Source: a virus. Taken from it: 64,000 nucleotides of DNA. A model generated the notes under the pieces. That model saw only the letters and a list, made by a program, of their open reading frames with translations, did not search any database and was not told the DNA's origin. The stretch covers positions 69,679 to 133,678 of the IMG/VR virus record IMGVR_UViG_3300048625_000299. One strand, 5' to 3'. Both the position numbers and the translations under genes were made by a program. How positions within the stretch are numbered: the first letter of the stretch is position 1; each line of letters opens with the position of its first letter. Positions 4,049 through 43,317 of the stretch are shown here, piece by piece.

Positions 4049-5005
4049 ATGAGCTTATTTGCTACTGATGAACTGAGTGCCAAAGCTAATGGCGGCACTG
4101 AATTGATGAAACGTGGACTCGAGCAACGACTCGACCCTGAACTACTCAAGCATTTCCATATTACTGCCAGCCGATATCGTGGCGGCGATCCCAATAAGAT
4201 CAATCTATACTGGTTGCATGATCTGCCAGGCGATCCTGAATCGGCACATTTGGCGAATGGTGGTTGGAACAACTTTGAAAAGTTGATCTTTGTATCCAAC
4301 TGGCAATTCCAAGCATACCAGCTGTATTATGGCCTGCCTTGGTATAAGTGTATCGTTCTGCAGAATGCAATCGAACCGATTCCTGTTGTGGAGAAGTCCA
4401 AGGAAAAGATCAAGCTGATTTATAACACTACACCACATCGTGGTTTGGAAATTCTCGTCCCAGTGTTTGATGCGCTGTGTAAGCGATTTGACAATATCGA
4501 GCTTGATGTATACTCGTCATTCGCTGCATATGGTTGGGAAGAACGTGACGAACCATACAAAGAGTTGTTCGAAGTGTGTAAGACGCATCCGAAGATTAAC
4601 TATCATGGGTACCAGCCAAATGATGTAGTCCGTGCAGCTCTCGCAGACGCACATATTCAAGCATACCCGTCGATCTGGTCTGAGACATCATGCATCGCAT
4701 TGATGGAAGCTATGAGTGCAGGTTGCTTGTGTGTTCATCCAAACTTCGCTGCGTTACCAGAGACATCCGCCAACTGGACATGGATGTATCAGTGGCACCA
4801 AGATAAACGCGATCATGCTAACATGCTGTATGGATACCTTGTCAACGCGATTGAAAACTACTGGACAGAAAGCGTACAAACGCGAGTTGCTGGTCAGAAG
4901 TCATATGCCGATGTGTTTTATGGTTGGGAAATGCGCAAGCACCAATGGAATGCTTTGTTGATGAGCATTCTCCAAGACAAGAAGATTGACTACACTCCGC
5001 AATAA
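4049..5005 (+). CDS. Glycosyltransferase, GT-B fold (family 1/4-like)
   Basis: C-terminal half has the GT1 signature ...GYQPNDVVRAALADAHIQAYPS...ETSCIALMEAMSAGCLCVHPN (E-x7-E-like donor-binding motif). ATG lies 2 nt after the upstream stop. Confidence 0.7.
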   Translation: MSLFATDELSAKANGGTELMKRGLEQRLDPELLKHFHITASRYRGGDPNKINLYWLHDLPGDPESAHLANGGWNNFEKLIFVSNWQFQAYQLYYGLPWYKCIVLQNAIEPIPVVEKSKEKIKLIYNTTPHRGLEILVPVFDALCKRFDNIELDVYSSFAAYGWEERDEPYKELFEVCKTHPKINYHGYQPNDVVRAALADAHIQAYPSIWSETSCIALMEAMSAGCLCVHPNFAALPETSANWTWMYQWHQDKRDHANMLYGYLVNAIENYWTESVQTRVAGQKSYADVFYGWEMRKHQWNALLMSILQDKKIDYTPQ

Positions 5006-13768: not shown

Positions 13769-14305
13769 ATGATCGACGCAGTTTATGTTCTTGGTAAGAT
13801 GGGCTTGAAGCCTGGTATGTCTGTTTCACGCGCAATCACGGCTGTCGGGATTGCAATTAATGACAGTTCCGACCAGTTGAAAGCAGCAAACCGAATCATT
13901 GTATCACTTGGTGCGAAGCCAGTCAGCAATACAATCATGGCCGACATCTTTGCCAAGGCATTAGTGGAACAGGCCGTTGTCCAAGGTGCTAGCTATGATG
14001 CTGACGATGCATTTGAGGTTGCGAATGCAAAGTATCTCAAAATCGAACGGACAATGCCATTCGTGTTCGCAGGTAGCGGTGAAAGCACCACGCCAGTATA
14101 TGGCACGCCTGTTGGAAATGGTGGCACTAAGAAGCCAAAACAAACAAACGACAAGAAGACACAAGCTCTTGAAATTTTCAATCGCGAGACCAGTAAGGGG
14201 TTGCCTAATTCCACAATTGCGCAGACAATTGCTACTGAGTTAGAAATCACACTGTCCAACGCCCAATACTACGTCAATCGTGTATTCGTAAAGTACTCCA
14301 AATGA
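13769..14305 (+). CDS. Hypothetical protein whose C-terminal ~45 aa is paralogous to the 8783-8947 product
   Basis: ORF track. Shared C-terminal motif ITLxNAQYYVxRVF. Confidence 0.55.
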   Translation: MIDAVYVLGKMGLKPGMSVSRAITAVGIAINDSSDQLKAANRIIVSLGAKPVSNTIMADIFAKALVEQAVVQGASYDADDAFEVANAKYLKIERTMPFVFAGSGESTTPVYGTPVGNGGTKKPKQTNDKKTQALEIFNRETSKGLPNSTIAQTIATELEITLSNAQYYVNRVFVKYSK

Positions 14306-15642
14306 AAATTCTCAGCATCCTCGACACGTTGGCCAATGATAATGGCCGCAACTTCAAGATTGATTACTTGACAAAGCACAAGGACAATCTCCTGCTCACA
14401 CAAGTAGTGTTCTTGGCACTTGACACATACACACAATTCTTCATTCGCAAGATTCCTGCATATACACGTGGCCCTGACACTGCAAATCTGAAGTGGGCTC
14501 TTGATAAACTATGCGATCTTTCTTCTCGTACTGTGACAGGCAATGCTGCAATCGCTCATCTTGTGAAGATCTTGGAATCTCTTGAACCAGATGATGCTCA
14601 GGTAGTTGAGCGCATCATTGAAAAAGACTTGAAGTGTGGTGTGGCAGCTTCGACCGTCAATAAGGTATGGCCTAATTTGGTCCACGAATACCCATGCATG
14701 CTTGCTAGTCCGTATGAGGAAAAGCTGGTCAACAAGATTCAATTTCCAGCATACGCGCAATTGAAAATGGACGGGATGCGATTCAATGCCATCGTCAAAA
14801 ATGGCAAATGTGAGTTCCGCAGTCGTAATGGTAAATTGATCGACATCCCGTCCGACCTATTCCAACAACCATTCCTCAACATGCATGAGTACTGGGGCAC
14901 CGATATGGTGTTCGATGGTGAGTTGCTTGTTGTCGATGTCGCTGGCAAGCCGCTCGATCGCAAGACTGGCAACGGCATCTTGAACAAAGCTGTTAAGGGC
15001 ACAATGTCTGAGGAAGAAGCTGTTAATGTTCGTGCAACATTGTGGGACGCACTTCCGGTTGAGAATTTTGCGGTTGGCGTATACAAAGAACAGTACATCG
15101 ATCGTATTGCTAAGCTATCTAATGCGTTGTCACATATGCGTAATCAAACGCCTTTTGGTCACTTGGTTGCTCTAGTGAACCACACAGAAGTTCGTACTCC
15201 CGAAGATGCTTCACGTCTATTCCTCCAGTACCTCAAAAAGGGCGAGGAAGGAATCATCTTGAAAGATCGTTTTGGTATTTGGGAAGATAAGCGTGCCAAG
15301 CACCAGATCAAATACAAGGGCGTGTTTGAGTGCGATTTGGTCTGTGTTGGATGGGATGAGGGTACCGGTCAGAACGTAGGTCGCCTTGGTGCATTGCAGC
15401 TGGCTTCGTCATGTGGCAAGCTGACTGTCGGTGTTGGTACTGGTCTTACCGAAGAAGACCGAATCAATATCGGACGTGATGTAATCGGTAAAGTTGTTGC
15501 TGTTGAATTCAACGCAATCATCGACGATAAGAAAAAGGACACTAAGTCGCTATTTCTTCCGGTGTTTATATGTGTGCGACCGGATAAGGACGAAGCAGAC
15601 TCACTCACGACTATCGAGAGTAGTGTAGTAAAACTCCTTTGA
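14302..15642 (+). CDS. ATP-dependent DNA ligase
   Basis: Motif I KMDGMR (KxDG), motif III MVFDGELLV, motif IV EGIILKD, motif V KYKGVFECD. 446 aa. Confidence 0.85.
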   Translation: MKILSILDTLANDNGRNFKIDYLTKHKDNLLLTQVVFLALDTYTQFFIRKIPAYTRGPDTANLKWALDKLCDLSSRTVTGNAAIAHLVKILESLEPDDAQVVERIIEKDLKCGVAASTVNKVWPNLVHEYPCMLASPYEEKLVNKIQFPAYAQLKMDGMRFNAIVKNGKCEFRSRNGKLIDIPSDLFQQPFLNMHEYWGTDMVFDGELLVVDVAGKPLDRKTGNGILNKAVKGTMSEEEAVNVRATLWDALPVENFAVGVYKEQYIDRIAKLSNALSHMRNQTPFGHLVALVNHTEVRTPEDASRLFLQYLKKGEEGIILKDRFGIWEDKRAKHQIKYKGVFECDLVCVGWDEGTGQNVGRLGALQLASSCGKLTVGVGTGLTEEDRINIGRDVIGKVVAVEFNAIIDDKKKDTKSLFLPVFICVRPDKDEADSLTTIESSVVKLL

Positions 15643-17730: not shown

Positions 17731-18750
17731 ATGTCAAAAAAATACGACACTCTCGTCCTCATCGGACGCTTTCAACCGTTTCATAACGCTCACCTTGAGA
17801 TCATCAAGCGTAGCACTGCGCTCTGTAATAAACTGATTGTTATTACGGGCAGCGCAAAACAGCCTCGCACATACAAGAATCCGTTCACCAGCTTTGAACG
17901 CGAGATGATGATCAAGCGTGCGACTGCAGGTCTCGCATTGACTATCAATGTCGTCGAAAACATCGACACAATCTACAACGACCAAGCCTGGGCTGTCCGG
18001 ATACAATCCATCGTGAACACATTGGCATGCGACGGTGATAAGATCGGCATCATCGGCCACAAGAAAGATGACAGCTCATTCTACTTGGATATGTTTCCGC
18101 AATGGGGATATGAGAACGTCGAAGAGATTGCACCGCTGAGTGCTGTCAATATTCGCGACCTGTACTTCAAGCGCAACTGTAATCTCGAATTCATTCGCGG
18201 GGTGGTACCTCAAACTACTTTCGAAATCTTGCTGGACTTCAAGCAAAGCGAAGAGTATGAACAAATCATCCGTGAGCGCGAGTTCGTAGAGAACTACAAA
18301 AAGCAGTACGCATCGCTTCCATATCCTCCAATCTTCAGTACTGCTGATGCTGTAGTGATCCAATCCGGCCATGTGCTGATGATTCGTCGTCGTGCTGAGC
18401 CAGGCAAAGGGTTGTGGGCGCTTCCCGGCGGATATGTGAACGCAAATACCGACAAGTCTGTTGAAGCTGCAATGCTCCGAGAGCTCCGCGAAGAAACAAA
18501 GATCAAAGTTCCCGAGCCAGTCCTGCGTGGTAATATCGTTCGCAGTAAGGTGTTCGATGCTGTCGATCGTAGTCCTCGTGGCCGCATTATCACTCATGCA
18601 TTCCACATTCAGTTGCCAGACGGCGAGCTGCCAAAGGTCAAAGGATCTGATGATGCTGAAAAGGCACGTTGGGTTCCGATTGCTGAAGTGAAGAGCGAAG
18701 ACTGCTTCGAAGACCACTTTGAAATTCTCCAACACTTTTTGGGAGCTTAA
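17731..18750 (+). CDS. natV: Bifunctional NMN adenylyltransferase / Nudix (ADP-ribose pyrophosphatase-type) protein, NadM/NatV-like
   Basis: N-terminal LVLIGRFQPFHNAHLEII (HxGH nucleotidyltransferase). C-terminal Nudix box GGYVNANTDKSVEAAMLRELREETKIKV. Confidence 0.85.
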   Translation: MSKKYDTLVLIGRFQPFHNAHLEIIKRSTALCNKLIVITGSAKQPRTYKNPFTSFEREMMIKRATAGLALTINVVENIDTIYNDQAWAVRIQSIVNTLACDGDKIGIIGHKKDDSSFYLDMFPQWGYENVEEIAPLSAVNIRDLYFKRNCNLEFIRGVVPQTTFEILLDFKQSEEYEQIIREREFVENYKKQYASLPYPPIFSTADAVVIQSGHVLMIRRRAEPGKGLWALPGGYVNANTDKSVEAAMLRELREETKIKVPEPVLRGNIVRSKVFDAVDRSPRGRIITHAFHIQLPDGELPKVKGSDDAEKARWVPIAEVKSEDCFEDHFEILQHFLGA

Positions 18751-19266: not shown

Positions 19267-20211
19267 ATGTGGAAAAATGTAAACGTCTTTGAAGATGAAA
19301 AAGAGCACGTTAAGAAGTATGTTTTCGAGAAAGATGACATCGCTATCGAGTCCGTTCTTTATCGTTATCCTACTTACGATGAACGCACTGTTCTCTGCAT
19401 TAGTACCATGTGCGGATGTCCAATGGGCTGTCGCTTTTGTGGAACTGGTGATTATTTTGTTCGTAGCCTTACTGCGGATGAAATTGTAGGCCAAGCTGAA
19501 TACATCCTCGAAACACAAATCGGCGGACTGAATCCTCGTGACATCAAGAAGTTGCAGATCATGGTGATGAGTATGGGCGAGCCTGCTTTGAACAAAGCTC
19601 TGGAAGAAGCATTCGATCGTCTGTATGCAAAGTACCCAAATGCAGCACTGCTGATTAGCTCAAGCGGTCCTAAGGTTAGCTACCAATGGATCATCGAAAT
19701 GAGCAAGCGGATTCCGACTGTCGGTTTGCAATTCAGCATTCACGAGAGTACAGACGAAGCACGCGACAAGTTGATTCCATTCGATAAGAAGTTGAACCTG
19801 CAAGAGATTGCTGATGTTGGCGTTCGCTGGCACTTGGATACTGGCCGTAAGCCATATTTCAACTATTGCGCTCACGAGGGCAACGATAAAGATGAGGACG
19901 TCCAACGACTACTCAAGTTGTACCATCCACGCATCTGGGAAGCGACTGTCTCTGTCATTTGTGAACGCGATGCTCATGCAGAAGCAACGAACGACAAGCA
20001 ACGCAACTTGGCTATTGAATTTGGTAACAAGCTGCTTGCTGAAGGTTACAACGTCCGTGTGTTCGATCCGGCTGGTCAGGATACAATCGGTGGTGGTTGT
20101 GGTCAGTTGTGGTATGTTCAAGACTGGATGAAGGACCATCCAGAGCACGTCAAGCCATCTGTTGGTTGTGGTATGCAAAAGGTCCACACACCAAAAGAAT
20201 GGAACGTATGA
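19267..20211 (+). CDS. Radical SAM enzyme of the RlmN/Cfr methyltransferase family, minimal form lacking the N-terminal RNA-binding extension
   Basis: VLCISTMCGCPMGCRFCGTG aligns with RlmN LCVSSQVGCALECKFCSTA (CxxxCxxC plus the upstream mechanistic Cys). IMVMSMGEPALN matches VVMMGMGEPLLN. ISSSGP matches LSTSG. FSIHESTDEARDKLIPFDKK matches [20 protein letters not shown]. C-terminal GGGCGQL matches AACGQL (the second mechanistic Cys). Confidence 0.75.
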   Translation: MWKNVNVFEDEKEHVKKYVFEKDDIAIESVLYRYPTYDERTVLCISTMCGCPMGCRFCGTGDYFVRSLTADEIVGQAEYILETQIGGLNPRDIKKLQIMVMSMGEPALNKALEEAFDRLYAKYPNAALLISSSGPKVSYQWIIEMSKRIPTVGLQFSIHESTDEARDKLIPFDKKLNLQEIADVGVRWHLDTGRKPYFNYCAHEGNDKDEDVQRLLKLYHPRIWEATVSVICERDAHAEATNDKQRNLAIEFGNKLLAEGYNVRVFDPAGQDTIGGGCGQLWYVQDWMKDHPEHVKPSVGCGMQKVHTPKEWNV

Positions 20212-20999
20212 AGTTTTTGATCCAATACAATCTAATGGCAGAGTCGCAACTCGAAGCAGTTAAGTCTGCAGCTCTGCCATATCCTCACCAGTATGTTGGA
20301 GTGATTCCGTTTTCAAATGAGATCACCGCAGCAGAGGGTGAAGAGATTGTTGGTACCGATTACATTCCATATGGGTCAACGCTGATGTCGACGATTGGCC
20401 TAGATTTGGGATGGAAGGGATTGCACTTCGATCTCGAACAGTTCAATTACGAAGCTGCAGTCGCCAATCGGGATGATATGCTGAATGATGGCGATATTAT
20501 GACTGTCGAAGAGACTATCGATTTCATGCGCGCCAGCACTCAAGAACAATGGTTCATCCGTCCTTCACTCGATCTGAAGCATTTTGCTGGGCAGGTAATC
20601 GAACGCATAGAGTGTGTGAAGTGGTTAACACAAGCACTCGGTTGTTCATCATCTGAGACGAAACGGATGTACAAAGACATGAAGATTGTCGTTGCAACAC
20701 CACAAAACATTCAAGCCGAATGGCGTTGGTTTGTGGTCGGAGGCAAAGTGGTCGATGGGTCAATGTACCGCTCACATGGTCAATTGATCAAGCTGCATGA
20801 GACTGATCCAAAAGTAATCGCTGAAGCACAAACGTTTGCTGATAAGTGGTTGCCAAACCAAAACGTCGTGATGGACTTGGCGCTTGTCGATGATGAATTG
20901 AAGGTAATTGAATTCAACTGTATCAACTGCAGTGGGTTCTACAATCACGATGTTCGTAAAATATTTGATGCACTGTATATGGAGAGTACAAAATGCTAA
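20208..20999 (+). CDS. ATP-grasp family enzyme
   Basis: ATGA-coupled start, chosen because the track's longer start overlaps the upstream gene. AEWRWFVVGGKVVDGSMYR and LKVIEFNCINCSGF resemble the ATP-grasp central and C-terminal motifs. Confidence 0.55.
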   Translation: MKFLIQYNLMAESQLEAVKSAALPYPHQYVGVIPFSNEITAAEGEEIVGTDYIPYGSTLMSTIGLDLGWKGLHFDLEQFNYEAAVANRDDMLNDGDIMTVEETIDFMRASTQEQWFIRPSLDLKHFAGQVIERIECVKWLTQALGCSSSETKRMYKDMKIVVATPQNIQAEWRWFVVGGKVVDGSMYRSHGQLIKLHETDPKVIAEAQTFADKWLPNQNVVMDLALVDDELKVIEFNCINCSGFYNHDVRKIFDALYMESTKC

Positions 21000-21478
21000 A
21001 GCATGTAAAAGGCAACTTACTCGATCTAGCTGAGGCTGGTCATTTTGATGTGGTTGTTCAAGGCTGCAATTGCTTCAACGCAATGGGCGGAGGGATCGCA
21101 CGTGAGATTCGCGAGCGCTATCCAGTAGCCGCGGCCGCTGACAATAAGACTGTTAAGGGCGATTACAATAAGCTGGGCAATTGGACCAGCTGCCCAATAA
21201 TTGTCGGAGACTTGGGCTATGTTTCTAGCTTCGTTATCATCAACGCATACACTCAATATAATATGAGCACTGGTCAAGATGTGTTCGAGTATGCAGCGTT
21301 TGAGCTGATCCTCCAAAAGCTACTCTACACGTATGGAGATAAGCGAATTGGATTTCCGTTCATTGGTATGGGCCTTGCCCGTGGTGATAAGCAACGAATC
21401 ATCGGAATGCTTGAATGGTTTGCAGATGAAATTGAGAAGCGTGGCGGTAGTGCAACGCTAGTGGAATTCCAGCCATGA
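20993..21478 (+). CDS. Macro domain protein (ADP-ribose-binding/processing)
   Basis: GCNCFNAMGGGIAREIRERYP (Gly-rich ADP-ribose-binding loop) and FPFIGMGLARG (second Macro loop). Confidence 0.7.
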   Translation: MLKHVKGNLLDLAEAGHFDVVVQGCNCFNAMGGGIAREIRERYPVAAAADNKTVKGDYNKLGNWTSCPIIVGDLGYVSSFVIINAYTQYNMSTGQDVFEYAAFELILQKLLYTYGDKRIGFPFIGMGLARGDKQRIIGMLEWFADEIEKRGGSATLVEFQP

Positions 21479-21972
21479 ACATAGTCAAGTCCCCAAACGA
21501 GTATACCACTCGCAATAAATTCTCAATCTTCCTTGCTGGATCAATTGAGATGGGCATGGCGGTAGATTGGCAACAATCGATCGCTGATGCGTTGTATGGC
21601 ATTGATGGAATACAGCTACTGAACCCACGTCGTGATGATTGGGATTCTAGCTGGGCACAAACGATCGAGAATCCACAATTTGCTGAGCAAGTAAGATGGG
21701 AGCTGACAGCACTCGAACGATCTGATTTGATCATCTACTACTTTGCACCAGGCACACAAAGTCCAATCTCGTTGCTTGAGCTGGGACTCTATGCAAACCA
21801 TACAAAGAACATCTGGGTGTGTTGTCCAGAAGGATTCTGGCGTAAGGGCAATATCGAGATCGTCTGCCAACGATACATGATTCCATTCTTTGATGATTTA
21901 GATCACATGGTGGACGATCTGAGGTACTATCTTCCGATTTGGACGGAAGATGGATATGAGCAGTTGACATAA
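21475..21972 (+). CDS. Nucleoside 2-deoxyribosyltransferase-like (SLOG/Rossmann) protein
   Basis: SIFLAGSIE...RSDLIIYYFAPGTQSPISLLELGLYANHTKNIWVCC matches the NDT/Rcl-family pattern (Y.AGP ... D.GT.fElG.a...gKpv). ATGA-coupled. Confidence 0.55.
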   Translation: MNIVKSPNEYTTRNKFSIFLAGSIEMGMAVDWQQSIADALYGIDGIQLLNPRRDDWDSSWAQTIENPQFAEQVRWELTALERSDLIIYYFAPGTQSPISLLELGLYANHTKNIWVCCPEGFWRKGNIEIVCQRYMIPFFDDLDHMVDDLRYYLPIWTEDGYEQLT

Positions 21973-22046: not shown

Positions 22047-23444
22047 ATGAAACTGAGCAAAAACATTCTACTGAACACAGACAGCTACAAAGTGTCAATG
22101 TGGAAGCAATACCCTGTTGGAACAACTGGCGTATTTTCTTACATCGAATCGCGTGGCGGTCGTTATGATCAAACAGTGATGTTTGGTCTGCAAGCGTTCA
22201 TCAAGGAGTACTTACTTGACCCCATTACACAGTCCGACATCGATATCGCCGAAGAGATTCTTCTCGCACACGGAGAGCCATTTAATCGTAGCGGCTGGCA
22301 GTATATCCTCGACAAGCACGACGGATATCTCCCCGTCGTCATCCGAGCAGTCCCCGAGGGTACTGTGGTACCGGTTAAGAATGTCCTCGCAACCATCGAG
22401 AACACAGATCCCAACGTACCGTGGCTGACTACATGGCTCGAGACTCCCTTGCTTCGTGCGATCTGGTATCCAACTACTGTGGCAACACAGAGCTGGTCGA
22501 TTCGCAAAGTGATTTTGGATTATTTGGAGAAGACTGGTGACCCTGCTCTTATCGATTTTAAGTTACACGACTTTGGTGCTCGCGGTGTTAGTTCCCTTGA
22601 GTCCGCTGGCATTGGCGGCGCCGCGCACCTCGTTAATTTCATGGGTACCGATACTGTTACCGGTTTGTTGTATGCTCGTGAGTATTACAACGCTGGTATT
22701 AGTGGGTTTTCAATTCCTGCAGCCGAGCACAGCACAATCACAAGTTGGGGCCGTGACGGAGAAGTCGACGCCTACCGAAACATGCTTACAAATTTCGCTC
22801 GGCCCGGGTCCATTGTTGCAGTCGTTTCCGACAGCTACGATGTATTCAATGCCGCTAGCAAATTGTGGGGAGAAGAGCTCCGTCAGCAAGTGATTGATAG
22901 CGGTGCTACTGTAGTGATTCGTCCTGATAGTGGTGACCCTGTTGAAGTCAACCGCAAGTTGATTGAGATCTTAGGAGAAAAGTTTGGATACACTACAAAC
23001 GCCAAAGGATTCAAAGTCCTCAATAATGTTCGCCTCATCCAGGGGGACGGTGTCAATGAGTTATCCATCCGCAGTATCCTTGGGGCACTCATGGCAATGG
23101 GATGGTCGGCAGATAATATTGCATTCGGTATGGGCGGTGCCTTGCTCCAGCAAGTTGACCGAGATACCCAGAAGTTTGCAATGAAATGTTCTTCTGCGAA
23201 GATCAATGACGTGTGGGTCGATGTACAAAAAGATCCAGTCACTGATAGTGGCAAGAAGTCGAAGGCAGGTCGAGTGACTCTTTGGAAGAGTGGCGGCGAA
23301 TGGATCAGTAGCGTTGAAAAGCCAGCTGGCTGGCACGATAAAGCAACTGGTGAGTTTGTTGAAGTGCTGGAAACAGTATACGCTAACGGAAAGTTGATTA
23401 ACGAATATACATTCGACAACATCCGAGCAAGAGCTCGCAAATAA
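22047..23444 (+). CDS. nadV: Nicotinamide phosphoribosyltransferase (NAMPT/NadV)
   Basis: HDFGARGVSSLESAGIGGAAHLVNFMGTDTV is the NAMPT signature. 465 aa, typical length. Confidence 0.85.
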   Translation: MKLSKNILLNTDSYKVSMWKQYPVGTTGVFSYIESRGGRYDQTVMFGLQAFIKEYLLDPITQSDIDIAEEILLAHGEPFNRSGWQYILDKHDGYLPVVIRAVPEGTVVPVKNVLATIENTDPNVPWLTTWLETPLLRAIWYPTTVATQSWSIRKVILDYLEKTGDPALIDFKLHDFGARGVSSLESAGIGGAAHLVNFMGTDTVTGLLYAREYYNAGISGFSIPAAEHSTITSWGRDGEVDAYRNMLTNFARPGSIVAVVSDSYDVFNAASKLWGEELRQQVIDSGATVVIRPDSGDPVEVNRKLIEILGEKFGYTTNAKGFKVLNNVRLIQGDGVNELSIRSILGALMAMGWSADNIAFGMGGALLQQVDRDTQKFAMKCSSAKINDVWVDVQKDPVTDSGKKSKAGRVTLWKSGGEWISSVEKPAGWHDKATGEFVEVLETVYANGKLINEYTFDNIRARARK

Positions 23445-23979: not shown

Positions 23980-24174
23980 ATGGAATACACATTAGTGATT
24001 TGGACAGTTGTTGCTGCATTTGGTACAGGAGCTGGCACATATAGGCCGCAAGAGTATCGAGATTGGCGACCGCTAGCCGTTTTCAATAACGGTGGCGCTC
24101 AATCAATGAACCAGTGTCAGGCAGCCGCTGAACAATTAAAGCTGCAAAAGTTTGAATGTATCAGAACCAAGTGA
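23980..24174 (+). CDS. Small membrane protein with a C-terminal Cys pair (member of a three-gene family in this window)
   Basis: N-terminal TM helix LVIWTVVAAFGTGAG, then ...QCQAAAEQLK...FECI. Compare 47441-47606 and 47822-47998. Confidence 0.4.
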   Translation: MEYTLVIWTVVAAFGTGAGTYRPQEYRDWRPLAVFNNGGAQSMNQCQAAAEQLKLQKFECIRTK

Positions 24175-24184
24175 AGGAAAGAAA

Positions 24185-25225
24185 ATGCGTAAACTTGCAT
24201 CCATTCGTCGGATCGACGAACTGAACCCTATTGAGGGTGCCGACAAAATCGAAGTAGCAACCGTTGGTGGTTGGAAAGTCGTGTGTCAAAAAGGTCTCTA
24301 TAATGTCGGAGATCTTGCTGTGTACTTCGAGATCGACTCGTGGATTCCATCTGCTGTTGCTCCGTTTCTGACAAAGGACGGCCACTTCCCCAAAGTGTTC
24401 GAGGGTGTTGAAGGTGAACGTCTAAAGACAATCCGCTTGCGCGGACAATTGTCTCAAGGTCTGTTGATGCCTATACACAACGACAAGACTGGCACATATT
24501 TGATGGTCTACACAGATGAAACTGGTGAATATTCGCTGACTGTAGCCGAAGGTGATGATGTATCTGAGCCTCTTGGTATCCTGAAATGGGAGAAGGCAAT
24601 CCCTGCTCAGCTCGCTGGCATTTCTCGTGGCAACTTCCCAACTTTGATTCCAAAGACCGACCAAGAGCGTGTGCAAAACTTGAAGAAAGAGATTGCTGCT
24701 GCTCAAGGACAAGTCTACGAAGTGACGGAAAAGCTGGAAGGCTCATCGATGACTTGCTATGTAATTGATGGTGAGTTCGGAGTATGCTCCCGTAACCTCA
24801 ACCTCAAGGAAACTGAGGGCAACTCATTCTGGAATGCAGCTCGCGACAATGACCTCGAGCAAAAAATGCTTGCTCGTCAGTACGACTTTGCAATCCAAGG
24901 TGAGTTGATTGGTCCTGGCGTTCAAGGTAATATCTACAAATTGACAAAGCCTGAGTTCTATGTGTTTGACATCTATGATGTTAAGGACGGCGAGTATATG
25001 AATCCAGCTGCACGTCGTCAATTGGTTGAGTCTCTTGGCCTGAAGCATGTACCGATTCTGGACGATATGTATGTCCTTAACGATGATGTAGAACAACTGT
25101 TGACGTTAGCCGAAGGCAAGTCTAGAATGTTTGATACAGAACGAGAAGGCATCGTGTTCAAACAGAATGACGGTGGCATGACGTTCAAAGCGATCTCGAA
25201 CAAGTACCTATTAAACGAGAAGTGA
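24185..25225 (+). CDS. ATP-dependent RNA ligase, Rnl2/Rnl5-like (nick-sealing type with an N-terminal OB-like domain)
   Basis: Motif I TEKLEGSS (cf. T4 Rnl2 EKIHGTN), motif IV EGIVFKQ, motif V FKAISNKYL. The N-terminal ~70 aa resembles the OB module of Rnl5-type ligases. SD aaggaaagaaaATG at 24185. Confidence 0.7.
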   Translation: MRKLASIRRIDELNPIEGADKIEVATVGGWKVVCQKGLYNVGDLAVYFEIDSWIPSAVAPFLTKDGHFPKVFEGVEGERLKTIRLRGQLSQGLLMPIHNDKTGTYLMVYTDETGEYSLTVAEGDDVSEPLGILKWEKAIPAQLAGISRGNFPTLIPKTDQERVQNLKKEIAAAQGQVYEVTEKLEGSSMTCYVIDGEFGVCSRNLNLKETEGNSFWNAARDNDLEQKMLARQYDFAIQGELIGPGVQGNIYKLTKPEFYVFDIYDVKDGEYMNPAARRQLVESLGLKHVPILDDMYVLNDDVEQLLTLAEGKSRMFDTEREGIVFKQNDGGMTFKAISNKYLLNEK

Positions 25226-26156: not shown

Positions 26157-26723
26157 ATGGTTATGAAAACATTTATTACAAGCGATATCCATTTCGGACA
26201 CAAGAACATTATGAGCTTCTGTCCAGTATCACGTGCTCGCTTCAAGGGCGACGTGGACTACATGAACGCTCAGATCATCCAAGACTGGAACAATATGATT
26301 GGTCCAGACGACTTGGTGTATATCTTGGGCGACGTTGCATTCTGCTCATGGGAGAAGGCTGTTGGCTTCTTGCGTTCGATGAACGGTCGCAAGATTTTGA
26401 TCAAGGGTAACCATGACAGCAAGCTCGTCAAGAGTCCAGAGTTCGTTGCCTGCTTCGAAAGCATTCACGACTACTTGACAATCACATACAATGGCACTCG
26501 AGTGTCGATGTTCCACTATCCAATTGCTGAGTGGGATCAGATGCATCGAGGTGCTGTCCACTTCTATGGTCACTTGCATGGTGGCACTAGCGGATTGGAA
26601 AAGTACCGAGCAATCGATGTTGGTATGGATGGCAATATGTGCTACCCACATGACATGGATGTTGCTGTGGCAACTGCATTGAAAGGTGAAATCAAAAAGC
26701 ACCATGACAAATATGGGAACTAA
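26157..26723 (+). CDS. Calcineurin-like metallophosphoesterase (2',3'-phosphoesterase candidate of an RNA repair Pnkp)
   Basis: DIHFGH, ILGDVAF and KGNHDSK match the metallophosphatase motifs I-III. Confidence 0.75.
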   Translation: MVMKTFITSDIHFGHKNIMSFCPVSRARFKGDVDYMNAQIIQDWNNMIGPDDLVYILGDVAFCSWEKAVGFLRSMNGRKILIKGNHDSKLVKSPEFVACFESIHDYLTITYNGTRVSMFHYPIAEWDQMHRGAVHFYGHLHGGTSGLEKYRAIDVGMDGNMCYPHDMDVAVATALKGEIKKHHDKYGN

Positions 26724-26724
26724 T

Positions 26725-27195
26725 ATGAGCAAATTAAAATGCATTCAATTGGTTGGCGTGCCTGGATCAGGAAAGTCAACGTGGATTAAAACACAAACGA
26801 TGATCGACAACTTCGTTGTTGCGTCTACGGACAACTTTGTTGAGCAGCATGCTGCTAGCGAAGGTAAGACGTATAACGAAGTGTTCAAGGATTACATGCC
26901 GATTGCTGTAAGGTTGATGGCGAATCAGGTGTTAGTTGCGCAAGCGAATAACAAGAACATCATCTGGGATCAGACGTCCATGAGCGTTGCATCTCGTAAG
27001 AAGAAGTTCAACACGATTCCTAACTACGAGCACATCGCTGTTGTGTTCCCTGTTCCTGGTGAGGAAGAGCTGGCACGTCGCTTGGCAAGCCGTCCAGGAA
27101 AGTTGATTCCAGATCACGTTATGAAAAGCATGATCGATAGCTTTGAGATGCCGACCCTCGAAGAAGGGTTCACTGAAGTTCACGTGTTGCTGTAA
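26725..27195 (+). CDS. P-loop polynucleotide 5'-kinase (T4 Pnk kinase-domain-like)
   Basis: IQLVGVPGSGKSTWIK resembles the T4 Pnk N-terminal GCPGSGKST. ATG lies 2 nt after the upstream stop (track start 26686 rejected). Confidence 0.65.
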   Translation: MSKLKCIQLVGVPGSGKSTWIKTQTMIDNFVVASTDNFVEQHAASEGKTYNEVFKDYMPIAVRLMANQVLVAQANNKNIIWDQTSMSVASRKKKFNTIPNYEHIAVVFPVPGEEELARRLASRPGKLIPDHVMKSMIDSFEMPTLEEGFTEVHVLL

Positions 27196-27206: not shown

Positions 27207-27467
27207 ATGGTGGTGTTTCCAAAGGAGTTCGTTGCGATTCGTTATCCAGGATACTTCTGGCACACAGTCGAGAAGCGCTTGTACACGATTAAAGTGTCTG
27301 GCGAACTCCGTCCATTGAAATTCTGCCGTGGTGGTACGTTCTATGGCAAAACAATTGAGCCTGGTTATCGTGTAAGTGTGCAAGGTGTACGTAAGAAAGT
27401 ATCGATGACCTATCTGGGTAGCATTGGCAACTCATGGGTACAACAAGAGATTCCATATGAAAGTTAA
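27207..27467 (+). CDS. Hypothetical protein
   Basis: ORF track. Confidence 0.4.
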   Translation: MVVFPKEFVAIRYPGYFWHTVEKRLYTIKVSGELRPLKFCRGGTFYGKTIEPGYRVSVQGVRKKVSMTYLGSIGNSWVQQEIPYES

Positions 27468-28344
27468 TTCAGCATCACTGAAGAAGTTCGTTGAAGAAAA
27501 TCCAAAGCTGGTATCTCGTCGTCCAGCCGGTGATGGCATCTACGTCCTGAAATACAAAAAGACTGTATTCTATGATGGTCTGTGGAACGATTACTTAGAA
27601 GAGTGTCGTGGTACGATTGTGGATGAAGATTACAACATCGTGTCATACCCATTCACGAAGGTATACAACTATGGCGTAGAAGCGAAGTCCCCTGTACTAG
27701 ATGGCAGTACGAAGATCAAAGCATACCGTAAAGTTAATGGCTTTATGGTCGCTGTAACGTGGCATAAAGACGATATCCTTGTGTCAACTACAGGATCAAC
27801 GGACTCCGATTATGTAAAAATGGCTCGTGAGTTTATCGATCGTGATTTGGATCTATACCGTGCTTGGTGTAAGGAATATTCGACATACACATTCATGTTT
27901 GAATGTGTCCATAAGGATGATCCGCACATCATTCCAGAAGTGGAAGGGATGTATTTGCTAGGACACCGTCCAAAGTTCTTTGGTTCACCAATTGGTGTGT
28001 CTGACGATATGCATAAGGCATTCAACTGCCATTCGGTTGAAGCAATTGAGTGTACGTTAGATACACTACGTTCGTTAGCTAAGACAGTGAAACACGAAGG
28101 GTTTGTATTATATACGTTGGACGGCATGATAGGCTCTAAGATCAAGAGTCCACATTACCTAGTGTCTAAGTTTGTTGCTCGTAATCCACGAACTGACAAA
28201 TTGATGCGTCCAGATGTGAAGAAGTCACTCGATGAGGAGTATTATCCATTAATCGATGCCATCCAAGCGAACATCGATGCGTATACTGCTATGGACGAAC
28301 AGACGCGATTAGCGTGGGTGAGGGAGTTTCTTTCAACTCAATGA
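27457..28344 (+). CDS. ATP-dependent RNA ligase, Rnl1-like
   Basis: Motif I RKVNGFMV (KxNG), motif IV EGFVLYT, motif V GSKIKSPHY. ATG with SD aagaga preferred over the track's TTG at 27424. Confidence 0.65.
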   Translation: MKVNSASLKKFVEENPKLVSRRPAGDGIYVLKYKKTVFYDGLWNDYLEECRGTIVDEDYNIVSYPFTKVYNYGVEAKSPVLDGSTKIKAYRKVNGFMVAVTWHKDDILVSTTGSTDSDYVKMAREFIDRDLDLYRAWCKEYSTYTFMFECVHKDDPHIIPEVEGMYLLGHRPKFFGSPIGVSDDMHKAFNCHSVEAIECTLDTLRSLAKTVKHEGFVLYTLDGMIGSKIKSPHYLVSKFVARNPRTDKLMRPDVKKSLDEEYYPLIDAIQANIDAYTAMDEQTRLAWVREFLSTQ

Positions 28345-32415: not shown

Positions 32416-33150
32416 ATGAATCAAAATGTATTCCGTGCGGTATTTGGTCTGGGGGCAGTTGCAATTCTTGCAATCCTTGCTCCAATCATCTGGGCCGCGG
32501 CAAGCGCTGGCGTTGGACTGATTGCACTCGGTGTTATCGGCCTCGTTGGTATGGGCTTCATCCAAGCAATCCCATTGTTTGGACAGAAGATTGAAAACCG
32601 AATCCTTAAAGCTCGCAAGGCTGAGGCTCGTGAGAATCCGATCGAACAGTTACAAAACTTCTTGCGCCAAAAGGCTCAACAGGTTGCAGACTTTAAAACT
32701 GCAGTGACGTCGATTAACGCTCAGATCAAATCGTTGCAAGACATGGTTGCGCAGCGTAAGAAGGAACGTCCTGGATATGACGCATCTGCTCAAGAGAAGT
32801 CAATCCAAGCGATGATCGAAGCATACAATGCATTGAAACAAAAGTACGTTAACGCTGAGAATGCTCTTGCTGAATTGAAGATTGCAATTCAGGATAAGGA
32901 ATTTGAATGGAAGTTTAGCCAAGCTGGCCAAGCAGCAATGCAAAGCCTGAGTGCTTCGTCCGGTAAGGACTTGATGGAAGCGATGTTGGCAGACGAAGCA
33001 TTGAGCTCTGTGACGTCTAACTTCAACCAAGTATTCGCTGAATTAGAAATGGAAGCGCAAAACTTGACCAGTGCAAAGCAACTGAGCTTTGATTCTGGAA
33101 TGACGATCGATGTATCCGCAATTAACCTGTCAGCAAAGGTGCCAGCATGA
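32416..33150 (+). CDS. Inner-membrane protein (two N-terminal TM helices) with a long coiled-coil domain
   Basis: AVFGLGAVAILAILAPIIWAAASAGVGLIALGVIGLVGMGFIQAI, then heptad-rich sequence. Confidence 0.55.
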   Translation: MNQNVFRAVFGLGAVAILAILAPIIWAAASAGVGLIALGVIGLVGMGFIQAIPLFGQKIENRILKARKAEARENPIEQLQNFLRQKAQQVADFKTAVTSINAQIKSLQDMVAQRKKERPGYDASAQEKSIQAMIEAYNALKQKYVNAENALAELKIAIQDKEFEWKFSQAGQAAMQSLSASSGKDLMEAMLADEALSSVTSNFNQVFAELEMEAQNLTSAKQLSFDSGMTIDVSAINLSAKVPA

Positions 33151-33434
33151 ACGTATTGAAACCATTCTTAGTATTTTGGGTCCTAGTTGCCTTGTCCGTT
33201 GCTGCCTTCGCTAAAGGCGGAGGTGGCGGAGGTGGTCATGGGGGTGGTGGGCATAGTAGTGGCAGCCACGCAAGCAGCCATTCATCTAGCAGCCACACGA
33301 CATCTACAGCAAAGTCAGCACCCGCTCCAGCTCCTGTTGTAGTTCAACCAGTCCGTCCAACTCCGGTTGCCGTTCCACCAGCACGTGGGGGACAATCGGA
33401 AGAAGAAAAACGCAAGAAGCAACAAGCAAAGTAA
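33147..33434 (+). CDS. Secreted Gly/His/Ser-rich, Pro-rich low-complexity protein
   Basis: Signal/TM LVFWVLVALSVAAFA, then GGGGGGGHGGGGHSSGSHASSHSSSSH and PAPAPVVVQPVRPTPVAVPP. ATGA-coupled. Confidence 0.5.
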   Translation: MNVLKPFLVFWVLVALSVAAFAKGGGGGGGHGGGGHSSGSHASSHSSSSHTTSTAKSAPAPAPVVVQPVRPTPVAVPPARGGQSEEEKRKKQQAK

Positions 33435-33587: not shown

Positions 33588-34508
33588 ATGAAAAAGTATG
33601 TAATTGCAACATTGCTCGCTTTGAGCACACTTGGTGCATGTGCCGCACCAGCCAACGACGCTCCTGCTGCTGATTGCGATGGCGTCAAGTTCGCGACTGG
33701 TCCTAAGGGCAAAGGCTACTCCACTCTGTATGCAGACTTGAATAAGCTGCTTGGTGGCAAGGTCGCGATGTGTGAATTGAACACAACTGGTGGTCTGGAC
33801 AACTTGAACGCATTGTCGACCAAAGATGCTGACATCGGCATCGTTCAAATCGATACATGGAACGACATGAAGAATGGCGACGAAAACATCGCCAACCTGC
33901 AAGCAGTGATGCCATTGAATAGCAACTACTTGCACATCGTTACATCAGTTAATGGTATCCAAGGTGAAAAGAAATTCGGCTTGATCAAGGGCGACGTCAA
34001 GATGATCAACCGCTTCAGCGATCTTCGCGGTCAACGAGTAGCAGTTGTTGGTTCTGCCCAATTGCTTGGCCGTAAGCTCGAGAAATCTGTTGGCTATGGT
34101 ATGCAGTTCATTGACTCTAAGTCTGATGCTGAAGCGTTCGACATGGTCCGCAAGGGTCAAGTTGCGGCAGCAATGACCGTCAGCGGCTGGCCTTCTGGCA
34201 CCGTCAAGCAACTGAGCCAAGCTGATGGTCTGACTCTGGTACCGTTTGATGCTCCTATCGGTGAGCCATACAAAGTGAAAGCGCTGAACTACAAGAACAT
34301 CGCTGTGTATAACAACAACTCACTGGCAATCCCTAACGTGTTGGTTTCTCGTTCATTCTCTGGTCAACGTGCAGCAAATGTTGCAGCAATCCAAGCTGGC
34401 ATCGTACGTAACCTGACTGAATTGAAAGAAGGCAACTACCAACCAGCTTGGAACGAAGTCAACCCGAATGCAGCCATCAACGGTATGGCTAAGTTCAAGG
34501 CAAAGTAA
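33588..34508 (+). CDS. TAXI-family (TRAP-associated) periplasmic solute-binding lipoprotein
   Basis: Lipobox TLGAC. CELNTTGGLDNLNALSTKDADIGIVQIDTW resembles the TAXI signature (TGGtgG.y...g.....ADla.vQ.D). Confidence 0.55.
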   Translation: MKKYVIATLLALSTLGACAAPANDAPAADCDGVKFATGPKGKGYSTLYADLNKLLGGKVAMCELNTTGGLDNLNALSTKDADIGIVQIDTWNDMKNGDENIANLQAVMPLNSNYLHIVTSVNGIQGEKKFGLIKGDVKMINRFSDLRGQRVAVVGSAQLLGRKLEKSVGYGMQFIDSKSDAEAFDMVRKGQVAAAMTVSGWPSGTVKQLSQADGLTLVPFDAPIGEPYKVKALNYKNIAVYNNNSLAIPNVLVSRSFSGQRAANVAAIQAGIVRNLTELKEGNYQPAWNEVNPNAAINGMAKFKAK

Positions 34509-34682: not shown

Positions 34683-35639
34683 ATGGAACAAAAAGTGAAA
34701 CGTGGCTTCAAGCGCAAGACGATCGAACAAACAATCCGCAACAAAATGAAGGGTTGGTTTGCATCGATTGACGATATTGAGTTGCGTGACGAATTGAAGA
34801 AGCACTACATCGTCACTGGTGGCGCAATCACTTCGATGTTGCTTGGTGATTTGCCTAACGACTACGATGTGTATATCGATAATGTCGACACAGCAGCAAA
34901 GCTCGCAAACTACTACGTCAGCCGTTTGCCATCGTCTGACAACGAATGCACGAAGACTCCAATCGTCTCTGTTCCACCAGAAGGTGGTCGTGTCGAGATT
35001 AAGGTCCAATCTGCTGGCATTGCTGGTGAAGAAATCGACCAAGATGGATATGAGTACTTCGAGATGTATCCAGACGCGACTAGTCGCACCATGGCATACC
35101 TGGAAGGCGCTGCAGCGAAGAGCACAGGCAAATATACTGCACTTGCAATCACAACAAACGCAATTACGCTGTCTGATCAAGTTCAAGTGATCTTGCGGTT
35201 CGTTGGTCCTGCAAATGAGATCCACAAGAACTACGACTTTGTCCATACGACAAACTACTTCACTGAAGAAGAAGGCGTTATGTTCCAACAGGATGCATTG
35301 GAATCTATCCTTGCTCGTGAATTGAAGTATGTTGGTAGCCGCTATCCAATCTGCTCATTGTTCCGCATCAAGAAGTTCATCAAGCGTGGTTGGACAATCA
35401 CTGCTGGTGAAATGTTGAAGATCGCATATGATGTTGCGAAGCTCGACCTCGACAATCCAGTTGTGTTGCAAGATCAACTGACTGGCGTTGATGCTGCATA
35501 CTTTAATCAGATCCTCCGACTGATCAAAGAAGAGAACAAGCCGATCGAACGTACATACTTGTTCGAATTGATTAACCGTGTATTCGATGAAGACGACGAC
35601 ATCGATGCAGCTGCAGAAGGAACGACAGATGTTCAATAA
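34683..35639 (+). CDS. Pol-beta-superfamily nucleotidyltransferase of the CCA-adding / poly(A)-polymerase head-domain type (PF01743-like)
   Basis: IVTGGAITSMLLGDLPNDYDVYI matches the class-II tRNA-NT motif (vGGaVRD.LLG....D.D). ALAITTNAI resembles the RRDFTINA motif. Confidence 0.6.
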   Translation: MEQKVKRGFKRKTIEQTIRNKMKGWFASIDDIELRDELKKHYIVTGGAITSMLLGDLPNDYDVYIDNVDTAAKLANYYVSRLPSSDNECTKTPIVSVPPEGGRVEIKVQSAGIAGEEIDQDGYEYFEMYPDATSRTMAYLEGAAAKSTGKYTALAITTNAITLSDQVQVILRFVGPANEIHKNYDFVHTTNYFTEEEGVMFQQDALESILARELKYVGSRYPICSLFRIKKFIKRGWTITAGEMLKIAYDVAKLDLDNPVVLQDQLTGVDAAYFNQILRLIKEENKPIERTYLFELINRVFDEDDDIDAAAEGTTDVQ

Positions 35640-36102
35640 GAACCTAGCACCGATCGTCGACTTGATGATCAATTCGTTGGGTGAGCATAGCAATGAGTTC
35701 CGTGCTCAATTTGGTCGCGATCGATACTCATCGTTCATTCGTGAGTATCGGACGGTCGATCTCCGCGTGCCCCGTCAAACGGGCAAGACGTCAATCCTGA
35801 TCAATAAGATGATGGAGCAGCCATCGATCATGTTTGTCCATAACGTCATGGCGCGCGAACGCCTGCGTCCAATCGAGCACCTCTGGGGAAGCAATGTCCA
35901 TACTCGTCCAGAGTTGGATTACCTCGATCGCATCCGAGCGAAGTATTATTCTAGACTTGAACTGCAGTTTGAATGCTTGATGGTAGATGAGCCCGCTTTC
36001 CACACCAAAGCGCAAGAAAGCAACTTGAACGAATTCATCGATTTCTTACACGGCCGTCAATTGGTCGCAGATAAATTTTATGTATTGAAGCTCGGCACAT
36101 GA
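35629..36102 (+). CDS. Hypothetical protein
   Basis: Internal ATG with SD gaagga. Overlaps the upstream stop by 11 nt. Confidence 0.5.
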   Translation: MFNKNLAPIVDLMINSLGEHSNEFRAQFGRDRYSSFIREYRTVDLRVPRQTGKTSILINKMMEQPSIMFVHNVMARERLRPIEHLWGSNVHTRPELDYLDRIRAKYYSRLELQFECLMVDEPAFHTKAQESNLNEFIDFLHGRQLVADKFYVLKLGT

Positions 36103-41714: not shown

Positions 41715-41924
41715 ATGTGCGAATGTTCTGTCTGCAAGTATAGCAAATTGGTTAGGCCAATGCTATTGCAACTCGACGAAGAGCAACGGCAGTTCTTCGA
41801 ACAGATGTATGAATCATTGATCGAGACTCAATACGATCTCGACTACTACAAAGCAATCGTAGATGGTTCATGGCCGATGGCAGATGAAATTATCGCACGC
41901 AAACGCAGGAAAGAAACTGAATGA
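41715..41924 (+). CDS. Hypothetical protein
   Basis: ORF track. Confidence 0.4.
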   Translation: MCECSVCKYSKLVRPMLLQLDEEQRQFFEQMYESLIETQYDLDYYKAIVDGSWPMADEIIARKRRKETE

Positions 41925-42436
41925 AAGTAATTATTGCAGGCGGACGCGATGTGTTTGACTTTGATGTTGTAAGTGAAGCAGTAAAGAAGTCGCACTATGC
42001 AATTTCTGAGGTTGTATCGGGTGGCGCTCAGGGCGCTGACCATCTCGGTGAGATATATGCTGCTGAAAACAATATCCCTGTCAAGGTGTTTCCTGCCAAC
42101 TGGGATAAGCATGGCCGCTCAGCTGGGCCGATTCGTAATGGCGAGATGGCTGAGTATGCAGATGCACTGATCGCAATTTGGGATGGTCAGTCTCGTGGCA
42201 CGAAGAATATGATTGAACAGGCGACCGAAAGGGGGTTGCAGGTCTACGTCTATCCTGTATCTAAGCCTCGGTGGTTTGTTGGTGTGACTGCAGATAACAG
42301 AACATACATCCAAGACGAAGACTTCAAGCATGATGCTAGATTATATGTCGATGGAGACTTCTACACCGGCAAGCAAAAGATGGCATACGTCAGAATGATA
42401 TGTGAGATATTAAATGAACACAACGACAGAAAATGA
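41921..42436 (+). CDS. SLOG-superfamily Rossmann protein (DprA/LOG/YpsA-like; DUF2493-like)
   Basis: KVIIAGGRD...VVSGGAQGADHLGEIYA...GPIRNGEMAEYADALIAIWDGQSRGT matches the SLOG glycine-rich pattern. Confidence 0.5.
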   Translation: MKVIIAGGRDVFDFDVVSEAVKKSHYAISEVVSGGAQGADHLGEIYAAENNIPVKVFPANWDKHGRSAGPIRNGEMAEYADALIAIWDGQSRGTKNMIEQATERGLQVYVYPVSKPRWFVGVTADNRTYIQDEDFKHDARLYVDGDFYTGKQKMAYVRMICEILNEHNDRK

Positions 42437-42558: not shown

Positions 42559-43317
42559 ATGATGATGGAAAAGATATTTCGCAGTAAGTGGGCCAAGCTG
42601 ACCATCAGCCGGTACACACACTGGACTGTTAAGTATGAAGTGCCTTCCGACGATTGTGATTCGTGGGAATGGGACAACGAGCGACCCCACGGCCAACGTG
42701 CAATTCATCGCGCATGGATTATCATTGGCATCAGGCGTTTGTTTTTCCAACTGTACTTGTGGAAGGTAACACCATTCGAAGGCAGCTGGGATGGTGATAA
42801 TACGAAGCAATATGGCATTACATACTTCGAACGATCGCTCCATGTTCATTGGGGCCGCACTAAGGTTTATTGGTTGCCTTGGGATTGGAAGATCGTCCGT
42901 CACGACTTGCTCCATATGGATGGCAGTCTCTACTATCGCAACTCATACCCAATCAAGAAGAGATCATATTCTTGGTATGAAGTATTGGAGATGAAAGAAT
43001 CGCCATTCCCTAAGTCGGATGTTCAAACACAAGTTGCAGATTACGTTGAACTCACTCACTACACTAAGGATGGTCGCAAGCAAGTAGCAAAGATCCGACT
43101 CGTCGGTGAAGAGCGCGAATGGAGATGGCGTTGGTTTAGCTGGCTGCCATGGCCAAGACAAATCAGTCGAGTTGTTGATTGTTCGTCTGACGTTGAGCTC
43201 GGCGAAAGGGCTGGCTCGTGGAAGGGTGGAATGATGGGTTGGAGTGCCCCCTTAGAAAAGGGACAGTCTTTGAGAGAAGCATTCTATGCATGGTACAGGA
43301 AGTGGGACGGCCGATGA
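42559..43317 (+). CDS. Hypothetical Trp-rich protein
   Basis: ORF track, 252 aa. Confidence 0.5.
   Translation: MMMEKIFRSKWAKLTISRYTHWTVKYEVPSDDCDSWEWDNERPHGQRAIHRAWIIIGIRRLFFQLYLWKVTPFEGSWDGDNTKQYGITYFERSLHVHWGRTKVYWLPWDWKIVRHDLLHMDGSLYYRNSYPIKKRSYSWYEVLEMKESPFPKSDVQTQVADYVELTHYTKDGRKQVAKIRLVGEEREWRWRWFSWLPWPRQISRVVDCSSDVELGERAGSWKGGMMGWSAPLEKGQSLREAFYAWYRKWDGR

Follow-up and report, generated by a model that had tools for sequence, protein, structure and literature searches.

The DNA studied here is a stretch of 64,000 nucleotides (the window) from the IMG/VR virus record IMGVR_UViG_3300048625_000299, positions 69,679 to 133,678 of that record. Our subject is one of its genes, an open reading frame (ORF) at 34683-35639 on the plus strand, which runs from ATG to stop and encodes 318 aa; the start codon is backed by the conserved N-terminus among homologs. 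The earlier note on this DNA, made from the letters alone, had seen here a CCA-adding or poly(A)-polymerase-type nucleotidyltransferase. According to our comparisons, the predicted product belongs to the Gad2 family (PF26128) and is one of its short forms (about 300 aa), new and divergent within a known family.

The founder of this family is Gad2 (Gabija anti-defence 2), which has 400 aa and is encoded by ORF_159 of Bacillus phage SPbetaL7. Deletion of gad2 leaves SPbetaL7 fully sensitive to the Gabija defence system, and a 394-aa homolog from a Brevibacillus prophage blocks Gabija when co-expressed; Gad2 is toxic alone, and a nucleotidyltransferase domain was predicted in it by AlphaFold (bioRxiv 10.1101/2023.05.01.538930). 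Gabija is reported from over 15% of the prokaryotic genomes sequenced, and Gad2 is among the few inhibitors of it from phages that have been validated.

Membership of the window protein in this family was supported by several independent matches. A precomputed PF26128.2 match exists on P0001, a protein of 318 aa that is 99% identical to the window protein, and a contig look-up names PF26128 "Gad2". Among 5.8 billion proteins we detected 2,850 homologs, with PF26128 on all 120 among the matches listed. Comparison by BLASTP with the founder itself (sequence from Supplementary Table 7 of bioRxiv 10.1101/2023.05.01.538930) gave E 3e-10 for residues 166-304 against Gad2 86-226, and a second segment, the head motif, with E 2e-4. 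When a 47-sequence family alignment (A1) was compared with Gad2 by hhalign, the probability was 97.2% and the E value 3.7e-11 over 220 columns, so that window residues 19-307 correspond to Gad2 7-242. In the PHROGs collection the protein matched phrog_4400 ("unknown function") over its full length with E 1.9e-53, and two nucleotidyltransferase PHROGs through the head motif alone with E about 0.06.

The earlier note had proposed a search with the profiles PF01743 and PF12627 of CCA enzymes. Neither matched the 318-aa protein in the local Pfam even at E <= 10, and this null result is meaningful because the positive control, E. coli Cca, scored 69.8 bits with PF01743 and 54.8 bits with PF12627. 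More generally, no model of the local Pfam-A, NCBIfam and PADLOC libraries matched the protein at E <= 10; the general Pfam null reflects the library version, since the local copy does not contain PF26128 and the founder Gad2 itself had no matches there. HMMER searches of PDB sequences with the protein and with the A1 profile returned no CCA enzyme and no meaningful relative. The note had also said that a profile of another Pol-beta nucleotidyltransferase family would speak against a CCA enzyme. Such a profile was found, that of PF26128, but the families named as examples fared otherwise: the closest fold or profile match was not to the CD-NTase (CBASS cyclase), MenT-AbiEii or KNTase-type Pol-beta families.

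Members of the Gad2 family are numerous, stand-alone nucleotidyltransferases found almost only in viruses. When 1.84 billion cluster representatives were searched exhaustively with HMMER, 1,768 clusters fell into the family at E <= 1e-3, and since most of them are 260-380 aa long (family median 310 aa), the short form is the common form. More than 351 IMG/VR loci carry a family gene. An alignment of 104 diverse members including founder Gad2 (A2) has a mean column identity of 24%, and eleven positions are invariant in all 104: G46, G47, D60, D62, Y64, Q168, D185, P222, R228, Q265 and G268. These eleven residues are identical in the window protein, in founder Gad2 and in the homolog from Bacillus phage SBSphiC.

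The AlphaFold2 model of the window protein had a mean predicted local distance difference test (pLDDT) score of 78 and a predicted template modelling score of 0.77. Fold searches with this model found the head and neck of class-II CCA-adding and poly(A) polymerase enzymes (a class that includes PDB 1MIV, 3H37 and 3AQL), and the likeness to CCA enzymes suggested by the earlier note does hold for the predicted head and neck fold. The eukaryotic non-canonical poly(A) polymerases TENT5/FAM46 (PDB 6JYJ) are 10% identical to the window protein with no sequence-level relationship detected; their resemblance may consist only of the shared Pol-beta core and a helical lobe.

The features of the protein are listed in Table 1. 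In its N-terminal extension R7, G8, F9, K10, K12, T13 and I14 are conserved at 90% or more in A1. The head motif itself, IVTGGAITSMLLGDLPNDYDVYI, occupies residues 43-65. By hhalign, VTGGAITSMLLGDLPNDYDV aligns with motif A of E. coli Cca (GGAVRD...DRD), and tblastn searches of the window with two queries, E. coli PcnB and the CCA enzyme of a Vibrio phage, picked out exactly this stretch (34794-34877, E about 0.08). In comparisons with single E. coli Cca, hhalign aligned only the head motif of 20-23 residues, with E 0.35 and 0.059. The class-II head motif reported in the earlier note is thus located where these programs place it, as a match of catalytic residues only which is marginal by sequence alone (E 0.06-0.35) but backed by the fold searches. 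The G-G...G...DxD residues are kept, whereas the V-R-D triplet of class-II GGxVRD is replaced by I-[ATV]-S in the family (GGxIxS). The motif, which reads TGGAITS...NDYDVY in the window protein, is present in founder Gad2 too.

Another motif was misplaced in the earlier reading, where ALAITTNAI was compared with the downstream RRDFTINA motif. The profile alignment puts motif B at NYDFVHTTN (183-191), with D185 on the D of RRD, and ITTNAI turned out to contain the conserved family motif N159-A160-I161, which lies on a different strand and aligns with the TLEDDL region of Cca. Conservation in A2 is high along these strands (N159 103/104, A160 101/104, Q168 104/104, R172 102/104, F173 103/104). 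The counterparts of motif B in relatives are FDFTVCMGAF in Gad2 and VDFTINMGAF in peg95 of Escherichia phage vB_EcoM_TH18, and among the family members seen it is in peg95 that the remnant of class-II motif B is most recognisable. That protein (L101 1009-2346, 445 aa) and g061 of Yersinia phage fHe-Yen9-03 (L100 1198-2262, 354 aa) both have C-terminal extensions.

The neck helix (P222 and R228 in 104/104, K231 in 103/104, F232 in 101/104) corresponds to the EDPLRxLRxxRF region of Cca without its templating D and R. The following neck motif, L262-D270, is shared with Gad2 (DQMGGMYGINY), and no counterpart of it was identified in CCA enzymes. The protein ends 15 residues beyond the last neck helix, and the alignment spans only Cca residues 1 to about 215; it therefore lacks the body and tail domains with which class-II enzymes grip the acceptor/T-arm of tRNA.

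How far does the family depart from authentic class-II enzymes at the level of motifs? For this comparison nine references were used: E. coli Cca, E. coli PcnB and seven phage CCA enzymes, including ones of 243-312 aa. Motif B reads RRD[LF]T[IMV]N[AS] in all nine and N[YF]D[FY]xH[CAT]T in the family, where the D alone is kept; motif D reads [ED]D[PG][LV]R..R..RF in all nine and [YF]Px[CA]S..RxxKF in the family. Alignment of the family with the nine sequences by hhalign was collinear over 253 columns (E 0.013), with motif A on motif A, D185 opposite the D of RRD and the next 38 residues collinear without gaps, R228-x-x-K231-F232 on LRxxRF, and the EDP of motif D in a gap. These alignments show that the putative catalytic carboxylates are kept and that the predicted ribose-sensing arginines and the Asp/Arg pair templating CTP and ATP are replaced. 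Because G46, G47, D60, D62 and D185 are invariant in 104/104 members at 24% mean identity, we infer that the window protein is catalytically active.

Authentic CCA enzymes and Gad2-family proteins also coexist in the same phages. In fHe-Yen9-03 and TH18, the family proteins g061 (148 bits against the family profile) and peg95 (91 bits) have a GGAITS...ND.D.YF head, and an annotated, Cca-homologous tRNA nucleotidyltransferase is encoded elsewhere in each genome. In a census of 80 viral IMG/VR loci, only 8 had tRNA genes at most 5 kb away from the family gene, and no tRNA gene occurs in the window. A genuine CCA enzyme was not found in the window by tblastn, although one may lie elsewhere in the phage genome. 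The GenBank records MZ568826.1, OX241556.1, OX241427.1, OX241563.1 and PP179332.1 name their family members "tRNA nucleotidyltransferase" or "pcnB: poly(A) polymerase I". Since the motifs are missing, such names probably over-annotate, and family genes should not carry them.

Table 1. The Gad2-family gene, the features of its predicted product, and other genes of the window.
Feature	Position	Strand	Basis or remark
Predicted short-form Gad2-family (PF26128) nucleotidyltransferase, complete ORF, 318 aa + stop	34683..35639	+	ORF, translation, homology
N-terminal basic helical extension, residues 1-41, 12 K/R, kept in close relatives	34683..34805	+	model helices 11-27, 32-41, pLDDT above 90
Pol-beta/class-II motif A, TGGAITS...NDYDVY	34806..34880	+	invariant G46, G47, D60, D62, Y64
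Variable low-confidence head insertion, residues about 80-152, not in founder Gad2	34920..35138	+	pLDDT 53-69; hhalign gap opposite Gad2; A2 consensus mostly "x"
Conserved head strands (T/S)xNAITLSD...Q168...R172-F173-x-G175	35139..35207	+	model strands 153-156, 160-163, 167-174
Relic of class-II motif B, H181-K-N-Y-D185-F-V-H188	35223..35264	+	D185 104/104, H188 103/104; RR and N-A of RRDxxxNA lost
Neck helix Y216-x-G-S-x-Y-P222-I-C-S-L-F-R228-I-K-K231-F232-I-K-R235-G-W	35328..35396	+	model helix 222-234
Family-specific neck motif L262-x-D-Q265-L-x-G268-V-D270-x-A-Y-F	35466..35504	+	Q265, G268 104/104; D270 102/104
GT1-family glycosyltransferase	4049-5005		318 aa
ATP-dependent DNA ligase	14302-15642		
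NMNAT-Nudix: nicotinamide mononucleotide adenylyltransferase-like (CTP_transf_like) + NUDIX fusion	17731-18750		
Radical SAM protein	19267-20211		
ATP-grasp R2K-clade protein	20097-20999		
Nucleoside 2-deoxyribosyltransferase-like protein	21475-21972		
NAMPT	22047-23444		PF04095 + PF18127
RNA ligase with PHA02142 OB domain	24152-25225		
AAA_33 P-loop kinase	26686-27195		
T4 Rnl1-family ligase	27424-28344		
Secreted-looking protein	33147-33434		95 aa
NMT1_3 protein	33588-34508		signal peptide
ORF overlapping the 3' end of the Gad2-family gene	35629-36102		157 aa
YAcAr (YspA/cpYpsA-related SLOG) protein	41921-42436		
CBASS inhibitor Acb3	42559-43317		PF25187, 252 aa, 102 bits

The source phage is about 237 kb long and has no close relative in INPHARED. 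Its Gad2-family gene sits in a long same-strand array of accessory genes. The NMNAT-Nudix and NAMPT genes look like a NARP2-type pair for reconstitution of nicotinamide adenine dinucleotide (NAD+), a known phage counter to NAD-depleting defences, and a survey of Erwinia phages has found perfect co-occurrence of gad2 and NARP2 (PMC13480210). Between these NAD-salvage genes lie those for the radical SAM, ATP-grasp and 2-deoxyribosyltransferase-like proteins, a trio with a possible part in the modification of nucleotides or DNA. The RNA-repair genes mentioned in the earlier note are present, namely two RNA ligases and the AAA_33 kinase 6-10 kb upstream, and this set probably counters anticodon nucleases. 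The GatB/YqeY protein that the earlier note placed further downstream was absent from the 10 downstream ORFs covered by our scan, which was not exhaustive. A second counter-defence gene, encoding Acb3, lies 7 kb downstream of the Gad2-family gene.

The 157-aa ORF at 35629-36102 shares 11 nt with the 3' end of the Gad2-family gene and is possibly translationally coupled to it; it has a Walker-A-like PRQTGKTS and a Walker-B-like LMVDEP, gives no Pfam match, and did not prove to be conserved next to other family genes in our census. Immediately upstream is the gene of a periplasmic solute-binding-like protein (NMT1_3), which is unusual for a phage, and before it that of a protein that looks secreted and contains a low-complexity stretch rich in Gly, His and Ser, GGGGGGHGGGGHSSGSHASSHSSSSH. 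A scan for promoters and terminators around the Gad2-family gene gave nothing beyond shuffled expectation. The ORF at 4049-5005, suspected as a paralog, was rejected as an unrelated GT1 glycosyltransferase whose length is the same by coincidence.

For the census of neighbour families, 76 viral loci in 56 dereplicated lineages were used. No conserved partner gene was detected, every neighbour family being present in at most 6 of the 56 lineages. The recurrent neighbours are RNA ligase, single-stranded DNA-binding protein (SSB), DNA ligase, PhoH, clamp loader and ERF annealase, the last lying directly downstream in 3 lineages. In the 42-kb genome of Sulfitobacter phage NYA-2014a the homolog has been found between a Rad52-type annealase and an exonuclease, with SSB next. 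The gene behaves as a stand-alone module in nucleic-acid transaction or accessory regions. One locus from a 339-kb metagenomic phage contig (L013 2240-8735) is an RNA and translation quality-control cluster: RF-1-domain and PTH2 (peptidyl-tRNA hydrolase) genes precede the family gene, a 563-aa TROVE (Ro60-like) + VWA protein is encoded directly after it, and an RNA ligase 4 kb on. In Vibrio phage 141E35-1 a "SLOG family protein" (L018 4591-4929) is encoded directly upstream of the family gene, an adjacency which could be a recurring association or a coincidence.

Taken together, these data lead us to regard as probable that the gene encodes a counter-defence, template-independent nucleotidyltransferase with a class-II-like fold and a specificity other than CCA. 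Such an enzyme would transfer nucleotides without a template, with a substrate and nucleotide specificity unlike that of CCA enzymes, and would not rebuild the CCA ends of tRNA. Its acceptor would most likely be a nucleic-acid 3'-OH, at the end of either RNA or DNA, though small molecules or proteins are also conceivable. The phage would deploy the enzyme as an accessory counter-defence function, the leading specific candidate being a block of a Gabija/OLD-type nuclease system. We propose this role because of the founder phenotype together with the genomic setting (the NARP2-type pair, the RNA ligases, the kinase and Acb3), and a single-gene accessory function because there is no conserved partner gene. 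Like Gad2, the window protein is phage-encoded and stands alone, and the two have in common the head motif GGAITS...ND.D.Y and the neck motifs P..S..R..K and DQ..G. The family also resembles the MenT/AbiEii toxins, which nucleotidylate the acceptor end of tRNA: both are small stand-alone Pol-beta enzymes in phage-host conflict, and MenT/AbiEii proteins are toxic on expression, as is founder Gad2.

Several points weigh against this interpretation. The mechanism of Gad2 had not been elucidated as of February 2026 (PMC12904381), and no family member's activity has been measured. The window protein shares only about 25% of aligned residues with Gad2, has an extra head insertion of about 70 residues, and does not contain the C-terminal domain of Gad2 (residues about 243-400, about 160 aa), which could confer Gabija specificity. 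Anti-Gabija activity is known for the 400-aa Gad2 and the 394-aa Brevibacillus homolog only and not for short forms. Moreover, Bacillus phage SBSphiC, whose 361-aa short form is intact with all 11 invariant residues, is listed as restricted by the Gabija of B. cereus VD045, the system that Gad2 counters (PMC10568477). For this reason the anti-Gabija function is not safely transferable to short forms. Either short forms need the Gad2 C-terminal domain, or they suit other Gabija variants, or the core activity is more general; the domain itself is probably lineage-specific and not family-defining. At the level of residues, the motif equivalences come from a low-confidence, if collinear, alignment and the link to CCA enzymes is weak (E 0.013), while the classical third Pol-beta carboxylate was not located in the window protein. 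Finally, the neighbours in nucleic-acid transactions (RNA ligase, DNA ligase, SSB, ERF/Rad52 annealases) fit housekeeping metabolism of RNA or DNA ends equally well.

What other functions might such a protein have? Among the alternatives, we place highest, while still doubting it, a non-templated RNA-tailing enzyme similar to poly(A) or poly(N) polymerases, an option that the earlier note had also raised. Such an enzyme would put a mark on RNAs of host or phage, or on the fragments of cleaved tRNAs, and so destabilise host transcripts or aid RNA repair, instead of acting directly on a defence system. PcnB, however, keeps RRD and EDxxR, which are not kept in the family, an RNA-binding domain could not be detected in the protein, the linkage to RNA repair is not conserved (at most 6/56 lineages), and the sole known phenotype of the founder is directed at Gabija, which is described as DNA-targeting. 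The acidic isoelectric point of the protein (4.8) was dropped as an argument against RNA binding, the head and neck of authentic CCA enzymes being equally acidic. A terminal transferase that extends the 3' ends of phage DNA in recombination or replication ranks next and seems unlikely to us. It could hide these ends from defences that sense them, such as Gabija, which is currently modelled as acting on the ends of phage DNA once RecBCD is excluded (PMC12904381, PMC12407980). Its support comes from the annealase, exonuclease and SSB genes around the NYA-2014a homolog, from the ERF annealase immediately downstream in 3 lineages, and from the recurrence of SSB and DNA ligase.

The function originally proposed, that of a minimal class-II CCA-adding enzyme which together with the phage RNA ligases and kinase would restore CCA ends after immune trimming, we hold to be very improbable. 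The class-II head and neck fold, the match at motif A and the ligases and kinase upstream fit it, as do RNA-repair genes near other family members: an RNA ligase in 6/56 lineages, PNKP in L014, and the PTH2, RF-1, TROVE and RNA ligase genes of the locus L013. The GenBank names that agree with it are automatic. Against it stand the absence of PF01743 and PF12627 with a positive control, the replacement of the RR of motif B and the EDxxR of motif D in all 104 members when 9/9 authentic enzymes keep both, and the lack of body and tail. The coexistence with genuine CCA enzymes and the scarcity of tRNA genes near the family point the same way. The description "minimal or repurposed enzyme" in the earlier note came close, in so far as we see a short Gad2-family head and neck, but the CCA function attached to it does not stand. 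Least credible of all is a catalytically dead scaffold inhibiting a host protein by binding alone. The unlocated third carboxylate would agree with it, as would the example of Gad1, the other Gabija inhibitor, which acts through binding; G-G, DxD and D185, absolute in 104 members at 24% identity, are hard to explain without catalysis. Overall, we rank counter-defence on a nucleic-acid 3' end above general RNA tailing and this above a recombination-linked DNA-end transferase, with a CCA enzyme and a dead scaffold as unlikely.

A bolder version of the counter-defence interpretation has only a small chance of being right, in our opinion. Here the Gad2 family would have branched off, in viruses, from tRNA/RNA 3'-end nucleotidyltransferases and would have RNA as its real target; the short form would be ancestral and general-purpose, and the C-terminal domain of Gad2 a later addition. 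The Old protein of phage P2, an ABC-ATPase + TOPRIM nuclease of the OLD family to which GajA belongs, cuts tRNA anticodon arms (PMC12445682) and has been described as an abortive tRNase (bioRxiv 10.64898/2026.07.10.737580). Because OLD-family nucleases are tRNases, a transferase derived from CCA enzymes may neutralise Gabija-like systems via RNA. If true, nucleotidylation of tRNA or other RNA would protect or mask the in vivo substrate or activator of Gabija, and Gabija would have an unrecognised RNA dimension.

For Gad2 itself, our comparisons narrow the hypotheses in four respects. The enzymatic module would be specifically the head and neck of class-II CCA/poly(A) polymerases; its putative catalytic carboxylates are invariant and the predicted nucleotide- and ribose-reading residues are replaced; the commonest natural form is a stand-alone protein of about 300 aa without the Gad2 C-terminal domain; and at least one phage is sensitive to Gabija although its short form is intact.

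Matches to the model in BFVD include many proteins of giant viruses (Klosneuvirus, Hokovirus, Pithovirus, Pandoravirus and others) with the same predicted head and neck. VWFA, ankyrin, BTB or F-box domains are frequently attached to it, and this suggests that class-II-like transferases have radiated more widely among viruses.

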